Shown here piece by piece: positions 552 to 37,270 of a stretch of DNA of 64,000 nt. A program made the position numbers and the translations under genes. The notes below the pieces were generated by a model. The model worked only from the letters and a program-made list of their open reading frames with translations, made no database searches and had not been told where the DNA came from. Source of the DNA: a virus; the IMG/VR virus record IMGVR_UViG_3300037054_000044, positions 1-64,000 of that record; one strand, 5' to 3'. Each line of letters opens with the position of its first letter. The first letter of the stretch is position 1.

Positions 552-620
552 TGCTGGATTTATAAACCAGCACTAGCGCGGCGGGTGCCTAGAACACTCG
601 CCGTGCGATCTTTCTAGGAG
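552..620 (+). promoter_or_regulatory. SD-occluding pseudoknot leader, copy 1
   Basis: Stem 576-587/595-606; loop CCTAGAA is complementary to TTCTAGG 612-618, which overlaps the SD. Confidence 0.8.
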
Positions 621-627
621 AATACAA

Positions 628-1116
628 ATGCCGTACAAGAGCCAAGAAGACCGAAGGACAAACAGCAGGAAACGCTACGCTGAAGACCCAGAGTTTCGCC
701 GCAAGACACAAGAGGCGACAGCAGCATGGGAAGCAACACTACCAACAGGTAAATGGTACACACCTGAGTATGGGCGTAGGAAGCAACTGGAACGACGCCA
801 CAAGATGACACCTGAGCAATATGACACTCAGTTGAAAGAGCAAGGTGACCACTGTGCTCTTTGCCCAGCAAGGCAGGGAGATGACAAGCGCCGTATGGCG
901 GTGGACCATGATCACGAATGCTGTGACAAAGAATTAACCTGTGGCAATTGCAACCGTGGAATACTCTGTGCAGACTGCAACCGCATGGTGGGATTCTTAG
1001 AACAAGTACTGAAAGACACCAGAGGAGAACTCAAACCTTTGTGGAATACGTGGACAGCCCGTGCAATGGACTACCTAGCGTATTGGCGTAGTTTTAGACT
1101 CGGACCAAACGCTTAG
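628..1116 (+). CDS. Endonuclease VII-like (His-Me) putative homing endonuclease
   Basis: Q..CALC...AVDHDH...RGILC..CN motifs. Confidence 0.85.
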   Translation: MPYKSQEDRRTNSRKRYAEDPEFRRKTQEATAAWEATLPTGKWYTPEYGRRKQLERRHKMTPEQYDTQLKEQGDHCALCPARQGDDKRRMAVDHDHECCDKELTCGNCNRGILCADCNRMVGFLEQVLKDTRGELKPLWNTWTARAMDYLAYWRSFRLGPNA

Positions 1117-1134
1117 ACAACTCGATTTTAACCC

Positions 1135-1172
1135 AAGGCATTGCTCTTAACTGAGCAGTGCCTTTTGTTTTT
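1135..1172 (+). terminator. Intrinsic terminator
   Basis: AAGGCATTGCTC/GAGCAGTGCCTT hairpin followed by a T-run. Confidence 0.8.
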
Positions 1173-1181
1173 ACATGATCT

Positions 1182-1268
1182 TCGTCTCGCCTAGTTTGCG
1201 CTAGAGCGAGCGATTTCCTTGGCCCCCAGCCCTTTCGCGCAAACGGACGGGGCTGTTGAGCCGGGGAG
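1182..1268 (+). ncRNA. Two hairpins with complementary (kissing) loops
   Basis: Loop TTTGCG 1195-1200 is complementary to loop CGCAAA 1238-1243. Confidence 0.55.
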
Positions 1269-1298
1269 TAACTAAACTAAGACTCAGGAGAACTCAGA

Positions 1299-1910
1299 AT
1301 GACACTCAGAGGTGGAGACCAACTCGCAGCAGGCGCTCGCACGGCCCAATTCTCAGCAGGTGGCAGTGCGGTGAACGATGCAATCGAATTGAAGAACGTA
1401 GCACCAGAAGTAGAGGAACTAGGCAGCGGAATCACGGTGATTGATCGCCGCTCGCGGTTCGACTCAGAACCAGTGAAGAAGGCAGAGCCTAAGTTTCCAG
1501 AGAAGGAATACGGAGCGTTTCAACCCATACTTGACCGTGTGCTAGTCAAACGTGTGGCAGAAGACAAGAACATGGAGCAGTTGGAAGATGGCTCTATGCG
1601 TGACAAACGCACCGGGTTCATCATACCAGCGAAGTACAGACAACATTCAAACGTGGGGGTAGTCCTAGCGGTTGGTGACTTCGTAGTCATGGGTGGAGTC
1701 AAGACTCCCCTATCGGACATCATCAAGCCAGGGGACAGGGTTCTGTTTGGAGAATACAATGCCGAGAAGCTGAAGATTCCTGATGCACAAGTCCAAGCGA
1801 TGTGCGATGCGATTGGCGTAGAGTTCGAAGCCAGCGAAGACTTGGACGTAGTTAGAGTGCAGGACATCCGTGGTGTTTACAAACCAGTGGAGGTCACCAA
1901 TTATGTCTAA
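1299..1910 (+). CDS. groES: GroES/Cpn10-like co-chaperonin with N-terminal extension
   Basis: FQPILDRVLVKR...GFIIP...GVVLAVG...IKPGDRVLFGEY...VQDIRGV. Confidence 0.8.
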   Translation: MTLRGGDQLAAGARTAQFSAGGSAVNDAIELKNVAPEVEELGSGITVIDRRSRFDSEPVKKAEPKFPEKEYGAFQPILDRVLVKRVAEDKNMEQLEDGSMRDKRTGFIIPAKYRQHSNVGVVLAVGDFVVMGGVKTPLSDIIKPGDRVLFGEYNAEKLKIPDAQVQAMCDAIGVEFEASEDLDVVRVQDIRGVYKPVEVTNYV

Positions 1911-2202
1911 CCTAATCATTGACGCAAATGATTCTCCGATCCAGCCAGCGTTCGATCCATACTGGGATAAGCCGATGTCTAGGCGTGAGGCTCATAAGTT
2001 ATTCATGAGACTAGCAGCAAATGACAACGAACTGATGGGTATGGCAGACACTGCAGCCTTATTGCTTAATTTCATCTTGGAGAAGAAGCTAGTTATCGTG
2101 GATCGCAAAGAGGTTGACGATTACGTTGAACTGAAGAAATCACAGATGGCGGCCCAGCGCGAGCAAATGAAGAAGGACTCAGATGTCCAGCCCAACGGAT
2201 AG
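1903..2202 (+). CDS. Hypothetical protein
   Basis: ORF with GGAGG RBS, overlapping its neighbours. Confidence 0.6.
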   Translation: MSNLIIDANDSPIQPAFDPYWDKPMSRREAHKLFMRLAANDNELMGMADTAALLLNFILEKKLVIVDRKEVDDYVELKKSQMAAQREQMKKDSDVQPNG

Positions 2203-2917
2203 TTACAAGCAGTATCAATGCCCCGAATGGTTCCAAGAAGAACTCACACGTATTGGCGGGACTAATCGCTATGATACTCCCAACTTTATTGTGCGTTGGG
2301 GAATGGGCGGTGAACCTGAATGCGTGTATCGCGCAGGCGGTGACTGGAGCGTTGAAGGGCAGCCTAACTATCGAGGTTATAGAGACCTTCTGATAGGAGG
2401 TGGCACACCGTCGTGGATGCTGATGCAATGGCAAGACGCCATAGCGTACGGCACACCAGAGTCCTACTACGTAGGGAACTGGGACGAGGATACTTCTTTG
2501 CAGACGTTAGGGGAATATCCGTACTCAGGAAAGTACACGCTGCTGTACAACATGTGCTGGCGTGACATGCAGAATGGCAAGATGCGTATCGAGGCAATGC
2601 CCCTGAACTCCTTTGTTCTGGACACTATAGTACCCATCATAATGCAGTCCAAGGAAATCTCCTATGAGAAAACCATGGCGGCACTGAAGGAACAAAAAGA
2701 CAAGGACGATGCAGCAGACTTGGCTATGATCGAGGACGTGATGCGAGACGCTAAGATGGCTTTCAAAGGTCCAGTGTCGTACGCACGGCAAGGGTGTCGC
2801 ACTAGCATTATCGACCGCAAGGTTGAAGCCATGACTCGGAACTGGAATAAAATGGTAACCAATGCGCGGTCCTTAGGGAGAGGGCTTAGCGCACACTCAG
2901 CAAATCCCACAGTTTAG
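2183..2917 (+). CDS. Hypothetical protein
   Basis: 244-aa ORF in the operon. Confidence 0.7.
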   Translation: MSSPTDSYKQYQCPEWFQEELTRIGGTNRYDTPNFIVRWGMGGEPECVYRAGGDWSVEGQPNYRGYRDLLIGGGTPSWMLMQWQDAIAYGTPESYYVGNWDEDTSLQTLGEYPYSGKYTLLYNMCWRDMQNGKMRIEAMPLNSFVLDTIVPIIMQSKEISYEKTMAALKEQKDKDDAADLAMIEDVMRDAKMAFKGPVSYARQGCRTSIIDRKVEAMTRNWNKMVTNARSLGRGLSAHSANPTV

Positions 2918-2961
2918 GCTCAGAAAACTCAGAACGGCGCACAGCGCCAGAAGGACTCAAA

Positions 2962-3795
2962 ATGGACGCAACATGCAGTTCACCCACAACCCGTGGCGAT
3001 CTCAGCGCGGCGATGACTAAGGCAAACAACATCGACTGGAACTTCTCAACAGCAGATTATATGTTGAGCCGACCAGCAGATTTTTTTGTGTACTTATTCA
3101 ACATTGCAAAGCTGGAATACAAAGTTTCTCGTCTGCCCATCATCAAAGAGATGACCATCCCTGCTCGTAAAGAGGGAGAGAAGTATGCTCGCGTTACCAA
3201 GTTGCCATCTCCTTTCAAAATGCCTAAGGGCAATGTAGACTCCAATGACATTGACATCGTTATCCTCGACGGACGGCGCATGGCGATGGACATTGTTAAT
3301 CCAGATAACCTATCCTTAGATCAGGATGCTGTCATCACAGGTTCTTTCTCTGTGGGACAGAACATGGGTAATCTAGGCGTGTTCTGGTCCTTGAATGAGG
3401 AACCAACCGAGGCTGAGTTGGCTGCAGCAACGCGGCGCATGGAAAAGCATTATCGCAGTCTATTGACAGATGCGCGTTCGCTAGAGACATCAAACCCACA
3501 GGCTTTGCCTGCGGTGCTTACACCAACACTGCATGCGGCAGCGGATTACTTCCACGAGACGTTCAACTGGCACAAGAAAGAAGTGCACTTGGAGAACTGC
3601 CCACGTTGCGGTTCACCAGCGCGTGTCGGAGCACCTTTCCATCCGATGGAAGGCGGCGGTCTGTGTATTGGAGATTGGGATGCAGCCATCAAGTCTGGAG
3701 TCCGCAGTCGCGCACAGGCTTACGAAGCAACAGAAGACGAGCGGTATGCACCAAAACAACCAAAGGCAACTAAAAGTTTGCCTATGGAAGAGTAA
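2962..3795 (+). CDS. Hypothetical protein with CxxC
   Basis: 277-aa ORF in the operon. Confidence 0.7.
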   Translation: MDATCSSPTTRGDLSAAMTKANNIDWNFSTADYMLSRPADFFVYLFNIAKLEYKVSRLPIIKEMTIPARKEGEKYARVTKLPSPFKMPKGNVDSNDIDIVILDGRRMAMDIVNPDNLSLDQDAVITGSFSVGQNMGNLGVFWSLNEEPTEAELAAATRRMEKHYRSLLTDARSLETSNPQALPAVLTPTLHAAADYFHETFNWHKKEVHLENCPRCGSPARVGAPFHPMEGGGLCIGDWDAAIKSGVRSRAQAYEATEDERYAPKQPKATKSLPMEE

Positions 3796-3804
3796 TGCCA
3801 AAGT

Positions 3805-4052
3805 CGCGGCCAACAGGTGGATAATAGTGTTGACCATCCCAGACCTGTCTTGGGTTAACACAGCCGCGCACATTTTAGCAACACGATCTTGGCAAACAAA
3901 AGAGCCTACCTTGCGTAGCTGTTCTGAGTCCAGTGAATTTGTGGGCTTTTAAGTTTGCCATGTAATTTCAGCACTTACGACCTTAGGGGGAAGTGTGAAC
4001 TAGTAACGCAGTGATCTGAGTCCACGGCGCAACTTTGTTCCGCTTCCCCCTA
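3805..4052 (+). ncRNA. Structured intergenic RNA: a pseudoknot domain plus two long hairpins with WUCUGAGUC loops
   Basis: Stems 3890-3909/3941-3960 and 3984-4000/4037-4052 contain G.U pairs on the plus strand; near-identical 9-nt loops at 3922-3930 and 4014-4022. Confidence 0.7.
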
Positions 4053-4090
4053 TGCTTATTTTGTACCTGCTCGGTTCATTACCAAGCAGC

Positions 4091-4134
4091 GCGGGATCGA
4101 CTCGTAATCGGTCCCGCAAATCCTTTACGAGGGG
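4091..4134 (+). promoter_or_regulatory. SD-occluding pseudoknot leader, copy 2
   Basis: Stem 4091-4100/4108-4117; loop CTCGTAA pairs with TTACGAG 4125-4131. Confidence 0.8.
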
Positions 4135-4141
4135 AACTACC

Positions 4142-4726
4142 ATGAGACGATTAGATGGAAAACCAGCAAGTTATAAATACAGAAATTTGACTGGAAATAC
4201 TTTTGGAAAACTGACCGCACTTTATACTCTTACTAGAGAGGTAGGAGAGCGTAGGTTTTGGATGTGCCGATGTGAGTGTGGAGTAGAAAAACTAATAAAA
4301 GCGCACAACCTTACCAGTGGAGAAACCAATAGTTGTGGATGTGCAAAGTTAGCATCATCCAGAGCCAATATAGGAATTGCCCACTCAAAGGCTGTGAAGG
4401 AAGGCTCTGCATTTCGTCACTTGTTAGCAATGTACAAGAACAATGCAAAGACTAGAGGTTTTATTTGGGAACTGACAGCAGAAAAGTTCAAAGAGTTGAC
4501 TTCTTCTCCATGCTATTACACAGGAACAGTTCCTAGCAGCATTGTTAAGGCACAATCGGGAGAGGTGTATACGTACAACGGGATAGACCGTTTGGACAAC
4601 ACCAAAGGTTATACCTTAGAGAACTCTGTTGCATGCTGTGGAGAAGTAAACATGATGAAGAAAGCGCTTTCTAAAGAGAACTTCATCGAGTTGTGCAGAA
4701 AGATTACAGAGAGGTTTTCAAAATGA
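4142..4726 (+). CDS. HNH-like putative homing endonuclease
   Basis: LTGNTFGKLT...WMCRCECG N-domain; PCYY...GIDRLDNTKGY..EN.V.CC..N. Confidence 0.8.
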   Translation: MRRLDGKPASYKYRNLTGNTFGKLTALYTLTREVGERRFWMCRCECGVEKLIKAHNLTSGETNSCGCAKLASSRANIGIAHSKAVKEGSAFRHLLAMYKNNAKTRGFIWELTAEKFKELTSSPCYYTGTVPSSIVKAQSGEVYTYNGIDRLDNTKGYTLENSVACCGEVNMMKKALSKENFIELCRKITERFSK

Positions 4727-5577: not shown

Positions 5578-5586
5578 AGGAGTCCC

Positions 5587-5694: not shown

Positions 5695-5697
5695 AAA

Positions 5698-6486: not shown

Positions 6487-6502
6487 CACTAAGTGAGCAA
6501 CT

Positions 6503-13630: not shown

Positions 13631-14806
13631 GTGATAACTTTAGGGCAACTCAATATAAGCGAGCAAGGAAAGAAGTACGTCAACGACTGCCTAGACTCAA
13701 ACAGGCTGTCTAAGGGAAAGTACACGGCAAAGTTTGAGCAGGACTTTGCAAAGTTGCATGGCTGTAGCCACGGAGTGTTCTGCAACAGCGGAACATCCGC
13801 CCTGCAAATCGCGTTGGCAGCACTCAAGGAACGCCACAGGTTTGACTACGAAGACGGGGACGAAGTGTTGGTCCCAGCCATTACGTTCATCGCCACATCG
13901 AATGTGGTGTTGCAGAATAACCTGAAGCCCGTGTTCGTGGATGTTGATCCAGTAACGTTCAACATGGACCCAAACAAGATTGCAGAGAAGATTACCCCTA
14001 GGACCAGAGCCATTATTCCTGTTCATCTCTTCGGCCTTCCAGCCGACATGCCGAGGATTATGAGCATCGCCCATCACTACGGACTGGACGTAATAGAAGA
14101 CTCATGTGAAACAATGTTTGCTGGCATTGACGGCAGATCAGTAGGAACGTTTGGAGACATGGCGTGCTTCAGCACCTACGTGGCGCATCTCATTGTAGGT
14201 GGCGTGGGCGGCTTGGTAACAACCAATAACCCAGCGTACGACGAACTGTGCCGCAGCCTCATGGCGCACGGTCGGGACAGCATCTATACCAGCATTGACG
14301 ATGACGACGACATAACCAAGAACATGATAGAGCGTCGTTACAAATTTGACCGCGTAGGGTATTCGTACCGCTGCACAGAGATAGAGGCGGCAATCGCCCT
14401 GTCTGAACTGGAGCGGTGGGCGTTTAGCATCAACCGCAGACGCTGTAATGCTACTCTTCTAACCGTTCTGCTAAAACCATACGAAGATAAACTGCAGCTA
14501 TCAACCATACCTGAAGGGTATGAGCATTCGTATATGATGTTTCCATTTGTCTGCAAGGCAGGGGTGAATCGAGACGCCTTGCTGCTACACATGGAGCAGA
14601 AGGGAATTGAAACCCGCTTTATGTTCCCGTTGTTGAGCCAGCCCATATACAGGAAGTTGTTCCCAGGGCTTGCTGAGCGGTACCCTGTGGCAAGTCGTCT
14701 GGAGAAGCAAGGGTTCTTTATTGGGATGCACCAAGGTCTAACCCCAGCGGATATGCACTTCGTTGCTCAGACAATTGCGGAGGGACTATGCGCCCAGCGA
14801 CAATAG
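13631..14806 (+). CDS. PLP-dependent DegT-family enzyme with His at the Schiff-base Lys position (ColD-like 3-dehydratase)
   Basis: NSGTSAL, PVHLFG, IEDSCE, FSTYVAHLIVGGVGG; lacks the Cys cluster after HGRD. Confidence 0.8.
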   Translation: MITLGQLNISEQGKKYVNDCLDSNRLSKGKYTAKFEQDFAKLHGCSHGVFCNSGTSALQIALAALKERHRFDYEDGDEVLVPAITFIATSNVVLQNNLKPVFVDVDPVTFNMDPNKIAEKITPRTRAIIPVHLFGLPADMPRIMSIAHHYGLDVIEDSCETMFAGIDGRSVGTFGDMACFSTYVAHLIVGGVGGLVTTNNPAYDELCRSLMAHGRDSIYTSIDDDDDITKNMIERRYKFDRVGYSYRCTEIEAAIALSELERWAFSINRRRCNATLLTVLLKPYEDKLQLSTIPEGYEHSYMMFPFVCKAGVNRDALLLHMEQKGIETRFMFPLLSQPIYRKLFPGLAERYPVASRLEKQGFFIGMHQGLTPADMHFVAQTIAEGLCAQRQ

Positions 14807-20076: not shown

Positions 20077-20256
20077 ATGATGTCAGGAGTTTTGCTGAGA
20101 AAAGGGAAGTCAAACGGACTGGTCAATATGTACCTTGCCGTTCCAGCAGATGACAGTACACACGTGAGCACAGACCGTGTGATCTTTGTACCAGTACCAC
20201 TTGATTCAACATTCAAAGAGTGCGTAGATGCACTTACGAAAACATCGCTGGACTAA
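20077..20256 (+). CDS. Hypothetical protein (59 aa)
   Basis: GAGGAG RBS; open frame. Confidence 0.55.
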   Translation: MMSGVLLRKGKSNGLVNMYLAVPADDSTHVSTDRVIFVPVPLDSTFKECVDALTKTSLD

Positions 20257-20318
20257 TTACCCAGCGCTAGTGTGGGGGCGTCTCATAGCGCTCCCATGCA
20301 ACCTACTATGAGAGGGAG
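20246..20318 (+). promoter_or_regulatory. SD-occluding pseudoknot leader, copy 3
   Basis: Stem 20270-20280/20289-20299; loop TCTCATAG pairs with CTATGAGA 20306-20313. Confidence 0.8.
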
Positions 20319-20320
20319 CA

Positions 20321-20896
20321 ATGAACGTGCAACCAAAGAAGACCGCAGAAGAAATGCGGGAGTACAAACTGAACTGGTACCACGAAAACAAAACACTAAG
20401 CGGTACGCACAGTAACCAGAACACAGGTAAGACCCACTGCATGCACGGGCACGAGTTTACAGAAGAAAATACAATCCTCAAAACGCAACGAGGAAAAGAA
20501 CACAGAGTCTGCAAGATATGCAATAGAAGAGATGCGAGAGTAATGTCAGAGTTTTTGAGAAAGAATTTGGACAAACTGGACCCAGTGCGTAGAGAAAAGT
20601 ACTTGAAGAGAAAACGCAAAGGGCAACTCAAACGTATAGGGTGGACCCCTGAGAGATTCGATGCTGTTTTTGCAGAGCAAGATGAAAAGTGTTGTATTTG
20701 TGGAAAAGTTTTGAATAGAGAAAAAGATCACAACCATGCCGTAGCACACGCTGACCATGAACATTCTGATCCGCCAAAGCCACGAGGCATTCTATGTGGA
20801 AACTGTAACCTTGGAATAGGAAATCTCCAAGAGAACGTAGAAATTATGAAAGCCGCGATATCATACGTGGAGAAATGGAGCAACCTTGGGGCATAA
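20321..20896 (+). CDS. Endonuclease VII-like putative homing endonuclease
   Basis: KTHCMHGHEF; Q..KCCIC...HADHEH...RGILCGNCN. Confidence 0.85.
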   Translation: MNVQPKKTAEEMREYKLNWYHENKTLSGTHSNQNTGKTHCMHGHEFTEENTILKTQRGKEHRVCKICNRRDARVMSEFLRKNLDKLDPVRREKYLKRKRKGQLKRIGWTPERFDAVFAEQDEKCCICGKVLNREKDHNHAVAHADHEHSDPPKPRGILCGNCNLGIGNLQENVEIMKAAISYVEKWSNLGA

Positions 20897-23800
20897 CCTC
20901 GAACAGCTCGGTTAACTAAGAAGTAAATAGCCGCTCTGTATAGCAATATGCAGATGATTCATCGAGAGAATTCAGGGAATCACCTAGTAATAGGTCAATC
21001 CTGAGCCGAGCCGCGTAAGCGGAAGGTGCAACGACTATCCCTTAGCAGGGAGTAGGGAACAGTGTTCCCGAAGCACTCGACACCCGTCAGGGTGATGATA
21101 TAGTCTGAACTTGTGGGTAACTACAAGAGAGAAAATGGAAACGATTTTCTCGCAACATACTTGACAGCTTCTTTAGATACGATGGGCGGTCTGGTCACCA
21201 ACTGCAACGCTCAAGACCTTCCCGAAGGTGCCTCCCCAAGGTGCTGGGATTGCGACTTCATTATCGGCAGCGTGTTCACTCGCGCTGGCCTGTCCTCAGT
21301 CTATTCCTATGCATCATCTTTGAACATCACGATGCTGCAAGTAGGCAGTGGCAGCGTTGGTACATTTTCGTACTCAGGAAATTCGACTCCCACGGTGAAC
21401 GAAGGGTTCGTGCTTCAGGGATTCTCAGGAAGCGCACAGTCTCTGAACGGGCAAACGATCTTCGTGATCTACGTCAACGCCATCGCTGGTACCTTCACAG
21501 CCGACGTTGCGCTCCCAGCAGGGACGTACATTAACCTTACGGGAACTGCCGTGTCAATCGTTGGGCAGTTCCTTGGGCCTAACATTCCTACCGCAGCCGT
21601 GTCCGTTGCGCTGAGCGGTGGAAACGCATGGCAGACGCCCAACAATGTCATGGGTACCGTAGGTTACGCAACGGTACTGTCGGGGTCCACGGTAGTCACA
21701 TCTCAAGTACCGCTGCTAGCAGGCAGCCTTCCAATAGGCGGCACCGTACTGTGGAACAACCCTAGTTTCCTGAACCACCCCAGCGGAGGCAACACCTTCG
21801 CCAGCATAACCATTGCTGCAGGGCAGGCGCAGAACCCACTCATAGCGTACAACGGTGCACTTGCAGTCCCAGCCGACGCGATTGTTAACGGCGTAACGGT
21901 TGCAGTGTACGCTGGTAGCATGAATGCAGGTGGTTCACTGAGCATTCAACTGGCAGATGGAGACACAGACACAGCCGTAGGCACAGCAGTGAACATTCCC
22001 TTAGCTGTTAACTCAGCTAAAGTGTACTCTGTTGGTTCTGCATTTTACCAATGGGGCACCACGCTGACGCCAGCCATGTTAAATGGCACGCACCTAGGCG
22101 TGATCGTCAAAGCCGCAGTTACCAGTGGATCGACATTCATCTGGGCCAACGGTGTTATAGTCACGGTGTACTACACTTTGGCAGGAAGTTCTCAGGTACT
22201 GAAGACAACTGGGTATGTGTTCTCTGCCCCCTCGACTGCAGGCGTCACAGGCTTCGGGGTCACATTCCAAGCCTTCACCACAGCGACCAACACACTGAGT
22301 GTGCAGTTGCTGAAGAACGGCATTGCAGTAGGTCAGCCAAAGACGCTGGCTCTTACCACGACTCCCACCATATACTCTTTGGGAGCCCCCAGTGATCTAT
22401 GGGGCAGCACGTGGACGTACGCTGACATCAACAACACGAGTTTCGGCGTAGCCATTGTAGCTTCCGATAGCGGCACGGTCTCTATCAATGACCTAGACGT
22501 TCTGGCCTACATTACGCCAGCACAAGTCAATTTCAACTACGTCAAGTCATACATACAAGATGACGGACAGATCGACACCTTGGCACTGGATGCCTCAGGG
22601 CTCATGTGGAAGGAAGACGTAACGAGTGCCCCCGGAGCACTGGCAGTGGTACTGTCAGGCATACTCCCCGGTTCATTTGCTAAAAGTGCCACAGCCGATA
22701 ATAACGAGTACATCATGTTTTCGGACCTAGCAATAGGAACGGACAGACCCCGCGTCTATTTCAGAGGCGAGCAGTTCCTTCCCCTATCGCAAGGTGGTCC
22801 CGGTGCACCTCCTACGGTCGTGGCATCACAAAGCACGGCAGGCGGTACGTTAGCGGTCACGGATTACTCTTCTGATGGAACGGTTATCACTTTCACCTTC
22901 ACTGCTGTTGCTGGCTTCACGCCCGTCATCAACTCCCTGTACACCATTCAAGGGACAGGCGTAGCAGCGCTGGACAACCAGACGTTTGAAGTCGTTGCCC
23001 CAGTATCTGGCACAACCTTCACAGCGTCGTTCGTGCACACGCCTATTTCCGGCAGCGGATTGGTAGGAGCAACGGCTGTCCCGACAACCTCCTATGGAAT
23101 CACGTCCATCGTGCAGGATGGAAACACTTCTAGTACCCCACTTCAAGTTGGTTCTGTTCCATTCAATGGACAGATCACAACGTGGAGTGCTCAAGGACAG
23201 TTTGGAACTGCAGGAACCACGGTACGGTTCTACTACGGCAGTGCAAACTCTCCGCAGAACCAAAGCCTGTTGGACACCATAGCGGCGTATGGCACAGCGT
23301 ACGTGTACATCGTAAGTACTGCAGCATGGCCGACAGCCACCACCATAGGAAGTGGAACATACCAAGTTATTAATACTGGAACTGCTATACCGGGATTCGG
23401 TGAGCACCAACCTGTGCCGTGGTTTGAAATTGCATACGGCTCCTCTAGCGCAGTAGGTGGTCAGCACTGGGGCGATGCTCTAAACACGGGCAACACAGGG
23501 CATTGGCAACAGACGTTGGCAACCGTCACTACTGCAGTGGCTATACCGGGATTAGGTCCGGGTGGCAACCTTACCATACAAGGTGTGAACACATCTTGGG
23601 ATAAAACTTGGACAGTTCTGCAAGCCTTAAAAAGCAATGTGATGAGCATTAGTAGCGTTTCCATGGATGGAAGCGGTGTGGCAACATACGACTACAATGT
23701 GACCAGCGTTCCTGCGGTACTACCTGCGGCTGGTGAAGAAGTCACCATCACAGGCACTACCAATAGTATTGGTGCTCCGGGGATATTCAACACCGTAGGC

Positions 23801-26224: not shown

Positions 26225-26253
26225 TTGACTTTATACTAGGAAACTGGTATAAT
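26225..26253 (+). promoter_or_regulatory. sigma70-like promoter
   Basis: TTGACT-17-TATAAT with extended TG. Confidence 0.8.
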
Positions 26254-26257
26254 GATT

Positions 26258-26310
26258 GTAGTGAGGCTCAGCCGTGAACTGCGCCTCACTGCAAATTCCT
26301 TTCACGGAGG
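26258..26310 (+). promoter_or_regulatory. SD-occluding pseudoknot leader, copy 4
   Basis: Stem 26258-26271/26279-26292; loop CCGTGAA pairs with TTCACGG 26301-26307. Confidence 0.8.
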
Positions 26311-26315
26311 AAACT

Positions 26316-26915
26316 ATGTTAAAGAAGTGCACAGTTTGCAATGAAGAGTTTGAAGCATATCGGAGCGGCAAATTATGTTCCGATAAGTGTAGAGAAGAAA
26401 AAGAACTACAAAGAAATAGAAAAAGAGCTAGAACCAAAAAGTACCAAGAGCAGCAACGAAGGTACAGAGAAGAACACCGTGTTGTAGCAGTTAAAAGACA
26501 AAGAACATACTATGCTACTCACAAAGATCGACTCAATTCTACGCGCAGAAAGAAATATGCTAAAAACCCAGAGCCTGCAAAGCTGCAAGCAAAGACTTGG
26601 GCGCAGAAGAACAAACAGAGAAAAACTGCGACTGACAAGGCGTGGGTGAAATCTAACCCTGACAAGTTTAAAGCTGCGCAGCATAGACATCGCACTGCTA
26701 AGAAGAGCAACGGTGGTTCCTTCACCGCCGCTGAGTGGAACGCTCTGTGTAAGCATTACCACAACCGTTGCCTGTGCTGTGGAAAACGTAGGAAACTCAC
26801 AGCAGACCACGTGATCCCCGTGTCCAAAGGTGGATCGAGCAATATTAGCAACATTCAACCTCTTTGCGGACCTTGCAATTCTAGCAAAGGAATAAAGAGC
26901 ACAGATTTTAGGTAG
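26316..26915 (+). CDS. HNH endonuclease
   Basis: CLCCG...TADHVIPVSKGG.SNISNIQPLCGPCNSSKG. Confidence 0.9.
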   Translation: MLKKCTVCNEEFEAYRSGKLCSDKCREEKELQRNRKRARTKKYQEQQRRYREEHRVVAVKRQRTYYATHKDRLNSTRRKKYAKNPEPAKLQAKTWAQKNKQRKTATDKAWVKSNPDKFKAAQHRHRTAKKSNGGSFTAAEWNALCKHYHNRCLCCGKRRKLTADHVIPVSKGGSSNISNIQPLCGPCNSSKGIKSTDFR

Positions 26916-31600: not shown

Positions 31601-31944
31601 ACATCGCAGACTACAAAGCCTTAAAAGACAAGGCAATGGTCATCCAGATGATGATGCAGAACGGCAAGATGGGTAGAGGTGGAATGCAGGCATTTGATTC
31701 CATCGTTAACCAACTGCCTGGAGGTTCAACTCCAGACAGCGCCACAGCCGCTCGTCAAATGGGAGCACTGCAGAACACAGTCAAGGGACTGATGGGTAAA
31801 TACCCAGAAAAGTACGCTGACTACACCAAGGCTAAGCCGTATGAAGCCAAGGAGCAGGGTGCTGCCCCCAAGCAGGGTGACAAGCATCAATACGCTGGTG
31901 CCAACTATACGTTTGACGGTAAACAGTGGGTGCAGCAAAAGTAG
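28687..31944 (+). CDS. Large putative ejection/internal virion protein with YDxGG repeats
   Basis: 1085 aa; five (Y/M)D(N/Q/D)GG motifs. Confidence 0.6.
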   Translation: MADTLTKLGDKVKDYWGKIKSLPPDEGEAQAIKEKQANVDAVTAKPTPEPEHTGSEPMPQGNYGSRPGEKRLDWAMKPEAPVYDNGGDVAMSGFKKMAPSLDEEDPHLKEEQIPQYTHGNDPARAKPQPKDFNGGSVGGVQDTALATPMYAPGQAPAMAAPIMDNGGDVKNINDGQHQVAILQTGERVLDRDEAARYRQMHGSKMPTMHESMDVNTGKPSSSLPELTPAIKPTPTAPLYDQGGIVGGSNLRKLGAPVYDNGGEVKTQPSYEERIAPYQLPRGYEDAKPVHDTLQLPRGYEDAQPVSRYGEAQAVANRPRIGMPKISMEEDHSTEKRSTLPVYDDGGSVDVNDGQHQAAILKDGERVLTPEENAQYKAEHPEKGAPADFGGRVIPNPKGIKPMDSDAPHAPTPMTYPGGAKMNIDNAPLDDKESEKTFPTVMPTEASAKSPARPYAEVEAEQKKAAEAKVNGDQGAQVAPAPTQESVPEQLPTATHEERVAIKHDEQEAMGKGIQGLTQLGMSKIHAKQLGINEEPSTEGVTAPKEFARPEQGGFPKMGEATPEAAAPAAPAAGAPAAPTTTSERSPDFKAKLAQLNQDHANALAERTPEGKVRADYIQEQINDLHKNNPWGTAGNRPGALGRLGHIASKFGNLAGDVFAPATMELIPGTDLNKRVQEAGLQKQTQADVQEATAREAEENKAGKVAPQDTYKEATQGGITDPAHPELGPQQAYVDEKDPSKIHFAGPMPPKAGAEKDQPANVDQQKDYQQRIANSGLTGQALQTYGTVPKGATTAELDKRFDEATKLRGMNQKDQETAIQNQARKDAADEKQFEHEQARADKLENQHFSYVDEKGQTQITTGDKVKELPEGTQTIPIKDVANLVGEARSMNAVQENMNVLHKDIEEHPEVFDNAAARTIVQTTTKEMNRASIGLLVAGTGMNLPIPEGFNNMIDTALQNNALDAKTAKSVKNYIADYKALKDKAMVIQMMMQNGKMGRGGMQAFDSIVNQLPGGSTPDSATAARQMGALQNTVKGLMGKYPEKYADYTKAKPYEAKEQGAAPKQGDKHQYAGANYTFDGKQWVQQK

Positions 31945-31951
31945 AAGAAAT

Positions 31952-32025
31952 CTCAGGGCCTCGAACCCTGGGCTAGAGTCGGGAGGTGCCAGTTACACCT
32001 CCCTTCTCGACCTTAACTGGAGGAG
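31952..32025 (+). promoter_or_regulatory. SD-occluding pseudoknot leader, copy 5
   Basis: Stem 31976-31988/31996-32008; loop CCAGTTA pairs with TAACTGG 32014-32020. Confidence 0.8.
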
Positions 32026-32027
32026 CA

Positions 32028-32660
32028 ATGTATTACACGTATTTGTGGTTAAGAGAAGACAGCACTCCGTACTATGTTGGAAAAGGTTCAAAGAATAGAG
32101 CCTACATTAGTTTTTCGCATGGTGTTCATAAGCCTACAGATAAAAGTAGAATCATCATCTATCCAGCAGAGTCTGAAACCAATGCGTTTGAAACAGAGAT
32201 AGCGCTAATTTGGTATTATGGAAGAAAAGATTTAGGGTTAGGCTGCTTAAGAAACCTAACAGATGGTGGAGAAAATCCTCCTAAGATGTATGGCAAAAGG
32301 TCCAAAGAAACTTGCAGAAGGATCAGTGAAGCCCTTAAGGGCGGAGTAAGAACAGAAGAGCATCGTAAAAAGATAAGTGATACTCTTAAAGCCTATACCA
32401 TACCAGAGTCGGTGCGCATTAAAATGGTTACTGCACTTAGGCTAAAACTGGTAGGCAAAAAGCACCCCATATCTGAAGAAACTAGAAAAAAGATAAGTAT
32501 GTCCCTTACAGGAAAACCAGGGCACAAGTCAACAGAAGAAACAAATCAAAAGATACGTTTAAAAGCTACAGGAAGAAAGCATTCGGCTGAGACTCGCTTA
32601 AAAATGAGTATATCAGCAAAGAACAGAGGAAAAAATGGCAGACACACAGGTAGCACCTGA
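32028..32660 (+). CDS. GIY-YIG-like/NUMOD3 endonuclease
   Basis: [19 protein letters not shown]...NLTDGGE; paralog of 11398. Confidence 0.85.
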   Translation: MYYTYLWLREDSTPYYVGKGSKNRAYISFSHGVHKPTDKSRIIIYPAESETNAFETEIALIWYYGRKDLGLGCLRNLTDGGENPPKMYGKRSKETCRRISEALKGGVRTEEHRKKISDTLKAYTIPESVRIKMVTALRLKLVGKKHPISEETRKKISMSLTGKPGHKSTEETNQKIRLKATGRKHSAETRLKMSISAKNRGKNGRHTGST

Positions 32661-35103
32661 TCAGCAACAGGCACCCGACACATTACCTGCTGACTTTTTC
32701 CAAACCAAAGGTACAGCCACAAGTGCGCCTGATACGCTCCCAGCAGATTTCAAGTTCAAAGAAACTCCTGAGGAAAAACCCCAGCCATCTGTTATGCACA
32801 ATGTTGGGGAGTATGGAAAAGGCTTAGCACACTCCGTGGGACTTCCTGAGTCTATGCAAGAGGCAGAAGAAGGAACCAAAGCGGCTACTGAAGTAACTCC
32901 CATGAACGCTATCCGCGCAGTAGGCGGCCCTGCCGTGAGCGCAGGAGAGCAAGTTTACAATGCTGGCAAGGGATACCTGAAAGGTTTGTGGAACACAGGA
33001 AAAGAAGCCTACGAAGCAGGGCAGAATATTGCCAAGGGTGGTCCTGTACTTCAGAACATAGCAAAACCAGCTTCTGAGTATCTGAATACCAATGTAGGAG
33101 CAGTTCCGTTCATCGGACAACCTACCGTAGAAGCAGGCAAGGATATCGCCGCAGGAACCAAAGATATTGTAGGAATGACACCACGAGCCGCAGGTGAACT
33201 GACTGGAGCAATTGGTCAGGTTGCGTTGCCTGAAGTGCTAGACAGAGTGCATCCTGAGCAAACCATGGACTTCCACAATAAAGCCGTGGAAACTGCACAG
33301 AAGAAACTAGACACCGCCAAAAAGGCGGCTCTACCGTATGCGGACTCTGTGGATAAAGGTGTGCAGCCTCCCGCTAAAATTCAGAAGCCAATTGACAAGG
33401 CACAGACCGAGTTGAATGAGGCCATTTACCACCGTGATACGCATAGGGATGCGATGGATGCACGGCGTACACACGTCACCAATCCCAAAGCCCCTGCTGC
33501 TGCCCCTGAGGTGCCTACAGAGCAGATTGAAGCAATGCCGCGCCCTGGTGCTCCTAAGCCAGCCGCTGCACCCGAGAACGTCAAAGTCCCAGGACAGGTT
33601 CAGCCAGAGGTAGTGCCACAGCCTCTGCTTGAACAGCCGCGCACTCCTATAGGACGCATGCAGCTTCCCGATGAGCAAGGCACAATGGGCAAGCCACGGC
33701 AACTCACCGCAGGTGCCAATCCTCCCACAGGCTCATCGAACCTAGAGGATGTAGTAAAGGCTACGGAAGAGAAAGAAAAGCCGGGAATGCCACAGATGAG
33801 GTTGCCTGAAGAGGCACCGAAGTCGGGAATGCCACAGATGACGGATGAGGCCGCGCTGCGAGCATTGGAAGCTAAAGAAGGAAAGGTTGTAACGAATCCT
33901 AAGAAGTTAGTAGGCGAGCAACTGAAGGAAGCGTTGAAGCCGGGAGAAGCAGCTAAGCCTGTTGCCGAGAAGGCACCAGCAGTTGCTGAGAAGCCTGCTG
34001 AGCCGCCCGTTGCCAAGGCCGAGGAAAAGCCTGTTCTTCCCAAGGAAGAGCCCACTGGCTATACTCCCAAAGCAGAAGAAGTTGTAAAAGCTGGAGAAGA
34101 AGGCCGCACACCTGCAAAGAGTGCAGCAGAGTATCACCCTGCCGTGCAGCAGAAGGTCAACGAACTGTCCGATGAGAAACTTCGTACGCTCGCAAAGGCG
34201 CACGGCTTGAATCCTGACGAGTATGATTTCAATGCACGTGACGAAGGCCGTCATCGCACTGAGCGTGACCGATTAGCGCGGGAAGTTACCGAACAGATGG
34301 GCGATGACGAAAAGATCAACCTAGGCCGTGCAGCAGAGAAGGCGGATAAGGAAGGTCTATTCCAAGGCGCAGATACGTCTTCCAAAGGGCGTGCAGCACG
34401 TGCGGAGAAGATGTTCCCACGTCTACGCGGTCCCGTTGATGAGCACGGTAATCCTAAGATTGGCGGTGGGTCACAAGCTGCCACAGCTACTGCCAAGGAA
34501 AAGTACGCAGGAGAAGAACGGCGTACTGCTGAACGTAAGGCACCGCTTAATTCTAAGGAAACGGAAGAGGCTATAAAAAGCCGTAAACCATTCACCAACC
34601 CATTCGACGAAACCGAGGGTGCTTCCAAAACTATAGCCAAGGACAAGAACATGCCCGTCCACCCGGCTGAGGAAGCCAAGGCAGTAACTAAGGCTGATAA
34701 CTACCATGGTGAGCCCATGTCCTATGAGCACCACCCCATGGGAGAAGAAGGTAGCAATCAGCAACATCACGTCACAACCAAGGATACAAACGGTCGTAAG
34801 ATTGGAGAACTAGTAGCACAGGACACAAAGTCCGGTGTAGCTACTGTGCGCTCCAACCAAATTTACGATAAAGAGTTGCAAGGCAAAGGCCGGGGTGTTG
34901 ACCAAATTACTCACTTCCTGAACAACGTAGGGAAAGACATCCACACTGTGCATAGCGACATCAGCACATCTGACCAAGCGAGGGGAGCATGGGATAAACT
35001 TGAGAAAGCATATCCTGAGTCCGTGACTAAGAAGACGTACAAAGATGGCCAAACTCGCTACACCGTGGATATGGAAAAGTACCAAGAAGAACTAAAGAAA
35101 TAA
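32635..35103 (+). CDS. Large putative ejection protein with C-terminal GNAT-like domain
   Basis: APDTLPADF twice; C-terminal ELQGKGRG...SD...S..ARGAWDKL. Confidence 0.55.
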   Translation: MADTQVAPDQQQAPDTLPADFFQTKGTATSAPDTLPADFKFKETPEEKPQPSVMHNVGEYGKGLAHSVGLPESMQEAEEGTKAATEVTPMNAIRAVGGPAVSAGEQVYNAGKGYLKGLWNTGKEAYEAGQNIAKGGPVLQNIAKPASEYLNTNVGAVPFIGQPTVEAGKDIAAGTKDIVGMTPRAAGELTGAIGQVALPEVLDRVHPEQTMDFHNKAVETAQKKLDTAKKAALPYADSVDKGVQPPAKIQKPIDKAQTELNEAIYHRDTHRDAMDARRTHVTNPKAPAAAPEVPTEQIEAMPRPGAPKPAAAPENVKVPGQVQPEVVPQPLLEQPRTPIGRMQLPDEQGTMGKPRQLTAGANPPTGSSNLEDVVKATEEKEKPGMPQMRLPEEAPKSGMPQMTDEAALRALEAKEGKVVTNPKKLVGEQLKEALKPGEAAKPVAEKAPAVAEKPAEPPVAKAEEKPVLPKEEPTGYTPKAEEVVKAGEEGRTPAKSAAEYHPAVQQKVNELSDEKLRTLAKAHGLNPDEYDFNARDEGRHRTERDRLAREVTEQMGDDEKINLGRAAEKADKEGLFQGADTSSKGRAARAEKMFPRLRGPVDEHGNPKIGGGSQAATATAKEKYAGEERRTAERKAPLNSKETEEAIKSRKPFTNPFDETEGASKTIAKDKNMPVHPAEEAKAVTKADNYHGEPMSYEHHPMGEEGSNQQHHVTTKDTNGRKIGELVAQDTKSGVATVRSNQIYDKELQGKGRGVDQITHFLNNVGKDIHTVHSDISTSDQARGAWDKLEKAYPESVTKKTYKDGQTRYTVDMEKYQEELKK

Positions 35104-35109
35104 CAGAAT

Positions 35110-35181
35110 CTCAGGGGTTGCTCCCTGAGCCAGTGCTGGGCGGTGCTCGTTACACCGCTCAGTGCAACCTTAACGAGGGGG
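35110..35181 (+). promoter_or_regulatory. SD-occluding pseudoknot leader, copy 6
   Basis: Stem 35133-35145/35153-35165; loop CTCGTTA pairs with TAACGAG 35171-35177. Confidence 0.8.
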
Positions 35182-35185
35182 AATT

Positions 35186-35731
35186 ATGTACAAGAACCCA
35201 GAAGATAGTAAAGCTAACAACGCAAAGTGGAGAAAGTCTCACAGGGAAGAGGACTTGGCTAGGAAGAGAAAATGGTACCTAAAGAACCGTATTTACTTAT
35301 TACAGCAAGCGCACCTTTGGAGAATCAACAATAGAGAAACTTCCCGTGAAAGCAATAGAAAATGGAAGAAGAACAACCCAGAGATAGTACTAAGAGAAGG
35401 ACGGGAGTGGAGAAAAAACAATCCAGACAAGGTAAAAGTGAACGACCACAGGCGCTTGGCTCTTAAAGCAGGCAACGGAGGTTCTTTTACCGCTGCTGAG
35501 TGGAACTCTTTGTGTAAGCACTATAGGCATCACTGTCTGTGCTGCAACAAGAAAAGAAAACTGACAGCAGATCATGTTGTCCCTTTGTCCAAGGGAGGCA
35601 CAAGTAATATAGAAAATATTCAACCCTTATGCGGCCCTTGTAATTCAAGGAAGGGAACAAAAACAATAGACTACCGCAAACAAAATCCTGAAAGTCCTGC
35701 CATTACGCAGGGGAATGCGAGTACATTTTGA
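35186..35731 (+). CDS. HNH endonuclease
   Basis: C-domain nearly identical to that of 26316. Confidence 0.9.
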   Translation: MYKNPEDSKANNAKWRKSHREEDLARKRKWYLKNRIYLLQQAHLWRINNRETSRESNRKWKKNNPEIVLREGREWRKNNPDKVKVNDHRRLALKAGNGGSFTAAEWNSLCKHYRHHCLCCNKKRKLTADHVVPLSKGGTSNIENIQPLCGPCNSRKGTKTIDYRKQNPESPAITQGNASTF

Positions 35732-36483
35732 GCCTATACACTAAGTCACCGTTTAAACCGTCACCAACTCTGCTCGTGCAGGGCAGACCAGAATACACAT
35801 TCGGAAGCTGGCTCGACAAGACAGGCCCAACTTTGGGCTATGTAATTTCAGACTCAGCGGTAACAACCACTGGAACTTTAACGTTTCGCATAGCCTCAGG
35901 AAATGTCCCAGTCGTGGGTAGCCTGATTACTGTGATTGGCACTGTCAATGGCAGTGGAAACCTGAATGTGACCAACGCACAGATTTTGTCTGCAACGACT
36001 ACGAACGCCGGAATTTCCACGGTGACTTTCACCATCACCTCCTCGACCGTAGCAGCGGGAACGCCTGACGGTGGCCAAGTATCTATACCGCAGCCTGAAC
36101 TTGGGGATGTCCTATCGTCATTCCCAGCGTCATCCATTGCAGTTGCTTGCCCATCATCCCCTGGCAATCAGTCAGGCAAATCCCTTAGCGCCACTGTTAA
36201 GCTGCCAGCGCAGCAACTCGGTGTTGCGAGTACCTTGTCAGCAGTTACGGTTCTTATTCAAGGCGCGAACTTCGATGAAGATGCGCAGTATAACACCATA
36301 GGAACTATCACTGCAGCAGGCACAGCATCGGGTGGGCCAAACGTTTATGACTGGCAATCAGGACAAGGTAACTCCGGTACACTAGCCTCAGGCGATGTTG
36401 ATTTGATCAACTTCAGGTTTTACAGACTACAAGTATCTGCGGCGACGGGCTCTGGACCTGTTGTCGGAACCATAATGTTCTAG
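35728..36483 (+). CDS. Putative virion protein (Thr/Ser/Gly-rich)
   Basis: Composition and context. Confidence 0.55.
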   Translation: MSLYTKSPFKPSPTLLVQGRPEYTFGSWLDKTGPTLGYVISDSAVTTTGTLTFRIASGNVPVVGSLITVIGTVNGSGNLNVTNAQILSATTTNAGISTVTFTITSSTVAAGTPDGGQVSIPQPELGDVLSSFPASSIAVACPSSPGNQSGKSLSATVKLPAQQLGVASTLSAVTVLIQGANFDEDAQYNTIGTITAAGTASGGPNVYDWQSGQGNSGTLASGDVDLINFRFYRLQVSAATGSGPVVGTIMF

Positions 36484-36555
36484 TATCGGTAATATGCGCA
36501 ATTCATAGCAAGCGGGGTAAAAGCCCTCGCAGACATTTGAACTCAGGAGACTCAT

Positions 36556-37002
36556 ATGGAACTCAAAGAAATTGCGTTGCAGTTAGCAGAGCAATCTGCA
36601 CAGTTGGAACAAGAGGGACAGGCCGCTCAGCGGACTGCTATGGAAGAAACTGCTAAGGCTCTAAAGTTAGAAGAAGAGCGAAGAGCCGCAGAGAAGAAAG
36701 CAGCGGACGTAGCCAATGCACGCGCCGAGAAGAAAGCAGCGGACAAGCGCGAGGCCGAGGCTGAGCAATTGCGTACGGAATCCGAAGCACGCCGCCGCAT
36801 AGAGCAGGCAGCGGATAAGCAACGAGAAGACATTGAAAAGGCCATGTATATCAAGGAAGGCATTGCTAGGCAGATGGCTGAGATAGAGCACGCGGCGGAT
36901 GTCGCTGTGCGTCAGATTGAAGATGCAAAAAATCGCATCGTAGTAGCAGAGGTCACACCAGAGCATCCGCTCAAGCGTTTCTTACAACACGCACCAGAAT
37001 AA
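36556..37002 (+). CDS. Coiled-coil protein
   Basis: E/A/K/R-rich helical sequence. Confidence 0.65.
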   Translation: MELKEIALQLAEQSAQLEQEGQAAQRTAMEETAKALKLEEERRAAEKKAADVANARAEKKAADKREAEAEQLRTESEARRRIEQAADKQREDIEKAMYIKEGIARQMAEIEHAADVAVRQIEDAKNRIVVAEVTPEHPLKRFLQHAPE

Positions 37003-37011
37003 GGAGTACGC

Positions 37012-37191
37012 ATGGCAACGTTTAGCCCAGATGGAAATGAACGAAACCGTATGGTAACGCTCTGGAACCAAGGCAAAACCTTGGCGCAGATTGCTACCAC
37101 GTTTGGTTGCTCTACTGCTATAGTAGATGCAACTATTAAGGCACTTTCTACAGAAGGGTGTTTTTCAGCTATAGACTACACAGGTTTGTAA
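37012..37191 (+). CDS. Small HTH protein
   Basis: AAGGAG RBS; LWNQGKTLAQIATTFGCS. Confidence 0.6.
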   Translation: MATFSPDGNERNRMVTLWNQGKTLAQIATTFGCSTAIVDATIKALSTEGCFSAIDYTGL

Positions 37192-37196
37192 ACATC

Positions 37197-37270
37197 CCAA
37201 GGCTTAGCGGCTTTGGAGCAGAGCAGGGGAGTGTCCTCAAAGCCTCCCCGCTCGACCTACTTTGAGGAGG
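37197..37270 (+). promoter_or_regulatory. SD-occluding pseudoknot leader, copy 7
   Basis: Stem 37221-37231/37244-37253; loop CCTCAAAG pairs with CTTTGAGG 37260-37267. Confidence 0.75.

Follow-up and report, generated by a model that had tools for sequence, protein, structure and literature searches.

Complementary hairpin loops in a putative translational leader common to unrelated phage nuclease genes

The stretch analysed here (the window) comprises positions 1–64,000 of the IMG/VR uncultured-virus record IMGVR_UViG_3300037054_000044, a phage genome of 85,205 nt with an estimated completeness of 77%. Seven nuclease genes in the window are each preceded by a leader, typically of approximately 85 nt, which on the evidence of covariation belongs to a genuine and widespread structured-RNA family common to several nuclease families. 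The leader is made up of three hairpins, termed hpA, S1 and hp2, of which hp2 carries in its loop (loop 2) the exact complement of the loop of S1 (loop 1) and includes the Shine–Dalgarno (SD) sequence. On balance, we favour the view that this is a portable nuclease leader, which would limit nuclease translation by occluding the ribosome-binding site (RBS), with loops that pair either between molecules or by way of an opening of S1.

The original prediction placed seven stem-loops in the window, each with a downstream complement of its loop running into the SD and an ATG, and all seven could be read directly in the sequence, together with the seven loop/partner pairs exactly as listed (Table 1). 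Each site has a G-rich stem of 10–13 bp with G·T wobbles and a loop of 7–8 nt, followed 5–11 nt later by a perfect complement of the loop, which runs into GGAG or GGGG and then the ATG. A strict scan of the 85,205-nt genome (stem of at least 8 bp, loop of 7–12 nt, 7-nt Watson–Crick complement within 14 nt) returned six loci on the plus strand and none on the minus strand, five of them claimed sites, while sites 4 and 7 were missed due to a stem mismatch or bulge. In 30 dinucleotide shuffles, the mean was 1.07 loci per genome, both strands summed. All seven leaders are genuine and well beyond what chance would produce. The sixth locus of the scan (14545–14569) was rejected, as it lies inside an aminotransferase open reading frame (ORF) and has no SD, start codon or model match; approximately one such locus is expected by chance.

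The small hairpin and the YAG that the original prediction had noted in front of the stem were found, by a looser scan and inspection, to be parts of one conserved unit of approximately 85 nt, in which an A-rich spacer with ATC(T)C is followed by hpA, YAG, S1 with loop 1, hp2 and the start codon. S1 is very stable, with 12–13 bp (typically 12) and a loop of 6–8 nt (typically 6–7) that mostly begins with CC. After 0–2 nt follows hp2, a weak hairpin of 3–5 bp, the 3' arm of which, together with the last bases of loop 2, constitutes the SD (GGAGG). S1 and loop 2 are separated by a median of 5 nt, the value found in 58 of 89 copies, and loop 2 lies approximately 8 nt before the start codon. The CC of loop 1 and the CCT of the hp2 5' arm both pair with the SD, the former at its first GG and the latter at its AGG; from their sequences, these two pairings are read as a split anti-SD. 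Median energies were −18.5 kcal/mol for S1, −7.1 kcal/mol for the loop-loop duplex and −2.7 kcal/mol for hp2. Nested folding of the seven leaders recovered hpA and S1 wherever they are present, and hp2 was weak or variable.

Conservation outside the helices is limited to ATC(T)C, to YAG, which is nearly invariant across the family, and to the loop classes of hpA. The hpA loops (columns 13–23 of alignment A6, described below) fall into discrete classes: CTTAGCGG, CTTGATCA, CCTCGAA, CTAATTA, CTTATAA and GTTGCT. Most classes other than CTTAGCGG and GTTGCT contain a palindrome of 4–8 nt (TGATCA, TAATTA, TTATAA, TCGA), and these two, the commonest, contain none; CTTAGCGG, the class that served as search pattern, ranks top in the set. 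The hpA loop class is independent of the nuclease family. In this genome, hairpins of the hpA class flanked by CAT(C) and YAG are confined to the leaders, and their stems covary with wobble pairs, for which reasons hpA was rejected as a general intergenic hairpin or promoter. Likewise, an RNase P-type minihelix (12 bp, 7-nt loop and RACC tail) was dropped, as the tail is variable (TCT, ACT, CTT and others) and changes in concert with its pairing partner.

Copies of the leader were numerous beyond this genome. Among 80 IMG/VR HNH loci gathered via homologues of nuclease 6, the strict scan detected 12 such arrangements upstream of start codons, distributed over 10 loci and each with a loop pair of its own. 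A covariance model of hpA and S1 only (R1) gave 43 matches, 31 of them distinct, in the 338 kb made up of the window, the rest of the genome and the 80 HNH loci; all 43 were in the orientation of the nuclease genes, with six window sites recovered and leader 4 missed. When IMG/VR was instead scanned blind to ORFs by the hpA-loop pattern, 80 of 117 stretches were taken as loci, and R1 yielded 85 more matches there (73 distinct). A second model with hp2 added (R2) gave 109 matches, 96 of them distinct, in 66 sources, and another 38 matches in 77 further sources (the remaining loci and a few near-duplicates). Several contigs contain three to seven matches within at most 14 kb, including L090/L134, L098, L109, L156 and the 13.6-kb L099, for which seven model matches (two partial) were counted. 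A loop pair can recur within one genome, as in two leaders of L090 (both CCTATCA).

The loop-loop pairing is absent from both R1 and R2 and therefore constitutes an independent test. A perfect Watson–Crick complement of at least 6 nt between the loops was present in 30 of 31, 64 of 71 and 89 of 96 distinct copies in three successive sets; in the control, where each loop was compared to the downstream region of other copies, only 42 of 930 comparisons reached 6 nt. In the set of 96, the seven exceptions comprise one copy ended by the contig end (L125), three remnants without loop 2 (L082, L099:2990 and L097:3118) and three copies with no loop complement (L103:10190, L099:1316 and L100:787), two of the latter being low-scoring. 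The alignment row of one more copy (L130) shows a loop pair, though it was scored without the hairpin in the 64 of 71 tally.

In the 96-row alignment with four helices (A6), 88.5% of 2717 cells were paired, compared to 67.2 ± 0.6% in shuffles (none of 500 reached the observed value) and 38–52% in controls where the 3' partner was slid by 1–3 columns. Changes on both sides were seen in 29 of 30 base pairs. Per helix, the paired cells amounted to 94.9% for hpA, 89.1% for S1, 77.6% and 91.1% for the loop-loop helix S2 and 89.7% for hp2, where the counts for hpA, S1 and hp2 are biased toward the model, as the alignment was fitted to these three. RNAalifold, applied to a plain MAFFT alignment, predicted hpA, S1 and an hp2-like helix unprompted, and the top mutual-information column pairs all fell in the four helices or within the hpA loop; no further long-range pairing, such as hpA with S1, was found among the top 45. 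The arms of hp2 covary as CCT/AGG, TCT/AGA, CCT/GGG, GTCC/GGAC, GTCT/AGAC, CGCCT/AGGCG, ACCT/AGGT, AACT/AGTT, CTCT/AGAG and TTCT/AGAA. Moreover, hpA and S1 together contain 174 G·T pairs vs 37 A·C pairs, an excess which indicates that the fold is selected in the plus-strand RNA. Both the structured-RNA family and the covarying pairing of the loop with the SD region, as originally proposed, are thus supported by the covariance models, the 96 distinct copies, the four covarying helices and the alignment controls.

The same data lead to a different view of the linker. Its conserved CT or CTA had been taken as a hint of a ligand or protein, while it is in fact one strand of hp2, the 5' arm, and owes its conservation to pairing with the SD core. 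Since the linker covaries with the SD core, binding of a ligand or protein at this position was rejected.

A search of Rfam 15, where a match would have ended the claim of novelty, returned no family for the leaders, either with the whole window or with positions 1–45000 at E-values up to 5. Leaders 5 and 7, searched alone at E-values up to 10, gave only matches of 8–15 bits, compared to gathering scores of 35–90 bits; these were mostly on the minus strand and to microRNA, snoRNA, sRNA and lncRNA models. Around homologues of nuclease 5 in cultured phages, no R2 match was obtained (E up to 10) at four loci, from two Rhizobium phages, one Sinorhizobium phage and Synechococcus phage S-SRM01, and blastn of one leader gave only chance-level matches, with E-values of 3 or more. 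The phage as a whole had no megablast match to a close relative in the phage collection. No description of the leader was found in the literature searched, which stopped short of the supplements of a 2023 catalogue of over ten thousand candidate structured RNAs in viruses (PMC10690425), where the motif may be listed.

Pfam and PHROGs assignments of the seven downstream ORFs bear out the prediction that they encode nucleases and that the leader is common to several families (Table 1). Also as predicted, the four plus-strand nuclease ORFs without leader (11398, 14788, 27551 and 42818) all overlap the upstream gene instead. In the ORF-blind scan, 55 ORFs of at least 100 aa were found behind leaders, with 15 matching GIY-YIG, 14 Endonuclease_7, 14 NUMOD3, 7 HNH and 2 HNH_3, and a single one matching a non-nuclease family (TerL).

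Seven pairs of alleles with and without the nuclease gene were compared. Two naive alleles (L184 and L099:631–689) have neither leader nor nuclease gene, indicating that leader and gene form one unit. In a pair of nearly identical contigs with one common leader, L004 (2682–3245) and L009 (1273–2369), the latter has a 533-nt nuclease ORF inserted immediately past the ATG, and the host gene restarts at a second ATG. Of the other alleles, L099:2990 retains hpA, S1 and the hp2 5' arm, L141 only an hpA-CTAG remnant, with a 6-nt direct repeat at both insert ends, L168:2584 is broken within loop 1 and L097 displays a complex replacement. Two other indels (L099:1898–2435 and L150:2218–2539) do not adjoin any leader match. 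At a site neighbouring that of L004 and L009, the two contigs have different nuclease genes, one HNH and the other of GIY-YIG type as judged by residues only.

Related variants were found for the phage itself. Its genome is represented in RNA libraries labelled peat metagenome, in the form of assembled contigs, from which junctions can be read and not molecule ends, strand or level, and whose uncovered parts are uninformative. For the region 31900–32764, contigs X3 and X4, from two peat studies, represent a variant that keeps leader 5 up to the GGAG and has 51 other letters in place of nuclease gene 5 (32023–32634), followed by the ATG of the next gene. An eighth copy of the leader lies outside the window on the minus strand (L082:5606–5683), with hpA and S1 intact (loop CCTAAGA) and without loop 2 and SD, and is probably a decayed nuclease cassette. 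The region around it (L082:5400–5720) corresponds to approximately 69,300–69,620 of the genome and continues into a 3' fragment of a nuclease gene, AP2-like by eye only. Our reading of these sequences is that leader and nuclease gene would arrive as a unit, and that the gene may later decay or be swapped while the leader can survive.

Whether the helices can form together was assessed by a rough steric estimate based on idealised A-form geometry, with fibre parameters that reproduce groove widths of 10.0 and 16.9 Å. In known kissing complexes, a loop with all its bases paired has the loop-loop helix stacked on its own stem. If the three helices (S1, loop-loop and hp2) were stacked in one line, approximately 22 bp would separate the 3' end of S1 from the 5' end of hp2, whereas 0–2 nt join these ends in the RNA. 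By this estimate, the three helices should not be able to coexist in one molecule. Since all three are nevertheless under selection, the loops would have to pair between molecules, or the lower 3–5 bp of S1 would have to open. The original prediction of a loop-SD pseudoknot thus stands with regard to complementarity and falls with regard to the simple H-type topology, as the element consists of twin hairpins with complementary loops; its own caveat, that the short linker is sterically tight for a stem of approximately 12 bp, agrees with the estimate.

Damping of translation, as originally proposed, remains the most reasonable reading of the leader. It would occlude the RBS and thereby keep nuclease translation low, and hpA and S1 probably insulate the nuclease gene from ribosomes terminating on the upstream gene. 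Loop 1 of one transcript could kiss loop 2 of another, which would give a concentration-dependent self-silencing; alternatively, the lower part of S1 could open to allow a strained pseudoknot within one molecule.

Several observations count against RBS occlusion by a dedicated nuclease leader. On its own hp2 is weak, and the loop-loop helix is excluded in one molecule with both stems intact, which puts the strength of SD masking in doubt. Although two positions between lower and upper S1 are unpaired in about a third of the copies, S1 is a nearly continuous helix of 12–13 bp in 48 of 89, which speaks against an easy partial opening. The proposed function does not account for the part played by hpA and the invariant YAG, and the alignment bias mentioned above applies to three of the four helices. 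Nor is the leader strictly tied to nucleases: in L132:2617–4530, an essential, TTG-initiated gene for the terminase large subunit comes directly after an intact leader (CTGATAC/GTATCAG), L004 has kept the whole leader joined at the ATG to an ordinary 160-aa gene, and partial leaders (hpA alone or hpA with S1) persist in alleles without nucleases, so its function is not confined to nucleases.

As a tentative extension, the leader may be a self-associating mRNA element, in which transcripts kiss head to tail, loop 1 of each with loop 2 of the next. Loops 1 and 2 would be located at opposite ends of an S1/hp2 rod of approximately 16 bp, unable to meet within the molecule, and the palindromic hpA loop could assist in many variants. 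Each contact would complete the masking of an SD, and might build a coaxial helix of approximately 23 bp that double-strand RNases could cut. If so, nuclease output would be capped by the concentration of its own transcript, without protein or ligand, amounting to RNA-only dosage control by a selfish gene. Head-to-tail association is known from the bicoid 3' UTR domain III, retroviral dimerisation hairpins and designed dumbbell rings with 7-nt kissing loops. The leader shares with these a single molecule containing a loop and a complement that cannot pair internally, and many of its hpA loops are palindromic, while it differs in that its commonest hpA loop (CTTAGCGG) is not self-complementary.

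A classical one-molecule H-type pseudoknot, with S1 fully formed, the downstream complement paired to its loop and the linker crossing S1, is unlikely, despite the very strong covariation of the loop with a partner in the same RNA, at a median of 5 nt after S1. As the S1 loop is fully paired, the first connecting loop would be 0 nt, and the idealised estimate does not allow both stems simultaneously. Even without hp2, a coaxial pseudoknot would require a straight P–P distance of 43.6–45.3 Å to be bridged across the 12–13 bp of S1, compared to the approximately six spans of at most ~7 Å each that the 5-nt linker of most copies provides, and the straight line would also pass through the helix. 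Furthermore, the linker bases pair with the SD core, as evident from the hp2 covariation, which a stretched linker could not do.

Antisense kissing systems typically present their target as a hairpin loop, in the manner of hp2, which raises the possibility that S1 is a processed antisense hairpin, encoded in cis and acting in trans, released by cleavage at YA|G and/or after S1 to kiss loop 2 of nuclease mRNAs, much like the c4 RNA of phages P1 and P7, which acts on its own transcript. Each copy has its own loop pair and YAG is nearly invariant, and at leader 4 a predicted promoter places the likely transcript start at this motif. We nonetheless give this explanation little credence, as the 0–2 nt between S1 and hp2 leave scant room for a cleavage site and no Rfam match to c4 or another antisense RNA was obtained.

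The promoters were identified in a scan restricted to sigma70-type patterns. One (507–535; 9 of 12 matches, TG-extended −10) lies upstream of the entire leader 1, and the other (26225–26253; 11 of 12 matches, TG-extended −10) stands in the place of hpA at leader 4, so that a transcript start is predicted at about the YAG at the base of S1. With these patterns, no promoter was found inside the leader structure, and both promoters found leave S1 and hp2 intact. Their −10 boxes are both followed by (G)TTGTAG.

An effect on mRNA fate is similarly doubtful. Here, the upstream gene would gain a 3' stabiliser or pseudo-terminator from hpA and S1, and the nuclease mRNA a 5' stabiliser, curbing the polarity of the insertion. 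This would suit the start of hpA 3–7 nt past the upstream stop codon, seen in 43 of the 73 cases in which an open frame of 60 codons or more precedes hpA, the high stability of S1 and the survival of hpA, alone or with S1, after loss of the nuclease. It leaves unexplained, however, the exact loop complements in 89 of 96 copies and the covariation of hp2 with the SD core, and neither hairpin is followed by a T-run, a terminator-like pattern being present only at leader 1, by virtue of the T's of loop 2. Finally, a DNA-level signal, be it a nuclease recognition site or a site at which cassettes recombine or land, would accord with indel borders that coincide with module borders (behind hpA-CTAG, where a 6-nt direct repeat is present, behind the hp2 5' arm and immediately past the ATG) and with identical leaders preceding different nuclease ORFs in L004 and L009, yet it is highly improbable given the wobble asymmetry and the compensatory changes in four helices, which point to selection on a plus-strand RNA fold, and given leader sequences too diverse for one recognition site.

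RBS occlusion by the leader would place it in a known class of function with a new architecture. In antisense kissing-loop systems, regulator and target loops of 6–8 nt pair exactly, mask the RBS and covary between relatives, and in the c4 RNA of phages P1 and P7, regulator and target are located on one transcript. The exact loop pairing that masks the RBS and the covarying specificity loops are common to these systems and the leader, with the difference that regulator and target are here adjacent hairpins 0–2 nt apart, without a match in Rfam. Pseudoknot riboswitches of the preQ1 and SAM-II type have a conserved unpaired ligand pocket, which was not found here.

Among homing endonucleases, RBS-sequestering hairpins have been described for I-TevI, I-TevII, I-TevIII, segB and Aeh1 mobE, and in the T4-type cases, as these reports outline them, transcription from a late promoter within the hairpin leaves out its 5' half and thereby frees the RBS (PMC3014915, PMC2988022). 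As in these T-even hairpins, the leader is a structure in cis in which the SD is base-paired directly upstream of a homing-endonuclease ORF, limiting translation, as it probably would here. As they are described, however, a single stable hairpin holds the RBS, whereas the leader has three hairpins, a stable S1 that does not contain the SD, and an SD masked by the weak hp2 together with loop-loop pairing. A closer parallel to S1 may be seg43(25) of Aeromonas phage 25, where a very stable hairpin of unexplained role, immediately upstream of the RBS and not sequestering it, is reported (PMC2988022); compared by description only, both are highly stable and have their base close in front of the RBS of a free-standing endonuclease gene. 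Control of initiation by a pseudoknotted 5' leader is also known from the translational operators of T4 gene 32 and E. coli rpsO/S15, as cited in PMC3014915. These bind proteins and have conserved sequence, in contrast to the freely varying paired loops of the leader.

The leader bears on how homing endonucleases are kept at an expression sufficient to spread and too low to harm the phage, a balance so far explained only by the simple RBS hairpins of T4-like phages. As a compact and strongly covarying RNA, it precedes genes of at least four nuclease families in many uncultured phages of soil and peat. If the proposed function is correct, selfish genes carry a portable translational governor that can outlive the nuclease and be co-opted by ordinary phage genes. 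The topology also provides a concrete and inexpensive system for testing self-association of RNA as a means of regulation in bacteria and phages, and the natural orthogonal loop pairs could be of use in RNA engineering.

Table 1. Positions of the seven leaders, the nuclease genes that follow them and the neighbouring intron (window coordinates)
Feature	Position	Strand	Description
Leader 1	548..630	+	R1 57.2 bits; hpA 552–572, CTAG 573–576
Leader 1 S1	576–606	+	12 bp; loop 588–594 CCTAGAA; strict scan, R1
Leader 1 hp2	609–621	+	5' arm 609–611 TCT; loop 2 612–618 TTCTAGG; 3' arm 619–621 AGA; ATG 628
Nuclease gene 1	628..1116	+	162 aa; Pfam Endonuclease_7
Leader 2	4063..4144	+	R1 35.1 bits; most divergent copy; upstream hairpin ~4067–4089
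Leader 2 S1	4091–4117	+	10 bp; loop 4101–4107 CTCGTAA
Leader 2 hp2	4121–4135	+	5' arm 4121–4124 TCCT; loop 2 4125–4131 TTACGAG; 3' arm 4132–4135 GGGA; ATG 4142
Nuclease gene 2	4142..4726	+	194 aa; no Pfam match; PHROGs endonuclease VII / HNH endonuclease
Leader 3	20242..20323	+	R1 52 bits; hpA 20246–20266
Leader 3 S1	20270–20299	+	11 bp; loop 20281–20288 TCTCATAG
Leader 3 hp2	20302–20316	+	5' arm 20302–20304 CCT; loop 2 20306–20313 CTATGAGA; 3' arm 20314–20316 GGG; ATG 20321
Nuclease gene 3	20321..20896	+	191 aa; Endonuclease_7; free-standing; ends 16 nt before group I intron 5' splice site
Group I intron	20903–21127		Rfam RF00028, 66.1 bits; directly after nuclease gene 3; conserved terminal G at 21127
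Leader 4	26256..26318	+	no hpA; missed by R1 and R2, both of which contain hpA
Leader 4 S1	26256–26294	+	12 bp + mismatch + 3 bp; loop 26272–26278 CCGTGAA
Leader 4 hp2	26296–26312	+	5' arm 26296–26300 TTCCT; loop 2 26301–26307 TTCACGG; 3' arm 26308–26312 AGGAA; ATG 26316
Nuclease gene 4	26316..26915	+	199 aa; Pfam HNH
Leader 5	31948..32030	+	R1 82.3 bits; hpA 31952–31972, CTAG 31973–31976
Leader 5 S1	31976–32008	+	lower 31976–31978/32006–32008; upper 31981–31988/31996–32003; loop 31989–31995 CCAGTTA
Leader 5 hp2	32011–32023	+	5' arm 32011–32013 CCT; loop 2 32014–32020 TAACTGG; 3' arm 32021–32023 AGG; ATG 32028
Nuclease gene 5	32028..32660	+	210 aa; NUMOD3; PHROG 'homing endonuclease'; overlaps start of 822-aa gene at 32635
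Leader 6	35106..35188	+	R1 69.6 bits; hpA 35110–35129
Leader 6 S1	35133–35165	+	13 bp with 3 G·T; loop 35146–35152 CTCGTTA
Leader 6 hp2	35168–35180	+	5' arm 35168–35170 CCT; loop 2 35171–35177 TAACGAG; 3' arm 35178–35180 GGG; ATG 35186
Nuclease gene 6	35186..35731	+	181 aa; Pfam HNH
Leader 7	37192..37279	+	R1 61.2 bits; hpA 37197–37216
Leader 7 S1	37221–37253	+	lower 37221–37224/37250–37253; bulge 37225; upper 37226–37231/37244–37249; CCTCAAAG in loop, 37235–37242
Leader 7 hp2	37256–37270	+	5' arm 37256–37258 CCT; loop 2 37260–37267 CTTTGAGG; 3' arm 37268–37270 AGG; ATG 37277
Nuclease gene 7	37277..37999	+	240 aa; Pfam HNH

The 822-aa protein encoded behind nuclease gene 5 had no relative in IMG/VR. 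With regard to the intron, no Rfam match to one was found next to the other six leaders, and a location of leader 3 inside the group I intron was rejected: in the Rfam alignment, P1 with its U·G pair is at 20907–20915, past the stop codon of nuclease gene 3 (20894–20896), and the 5' splice site follows the end of exon 1 at 20912. In the RNA-library contig X1, 20912 is joined to 21164 (the letters between are not known). A candidate start of the 1702-aa gene is the TTG at 20886, with a GGAG 5 nt upstream, nine codons before the intron and overlapping the end of the nuclease gene.

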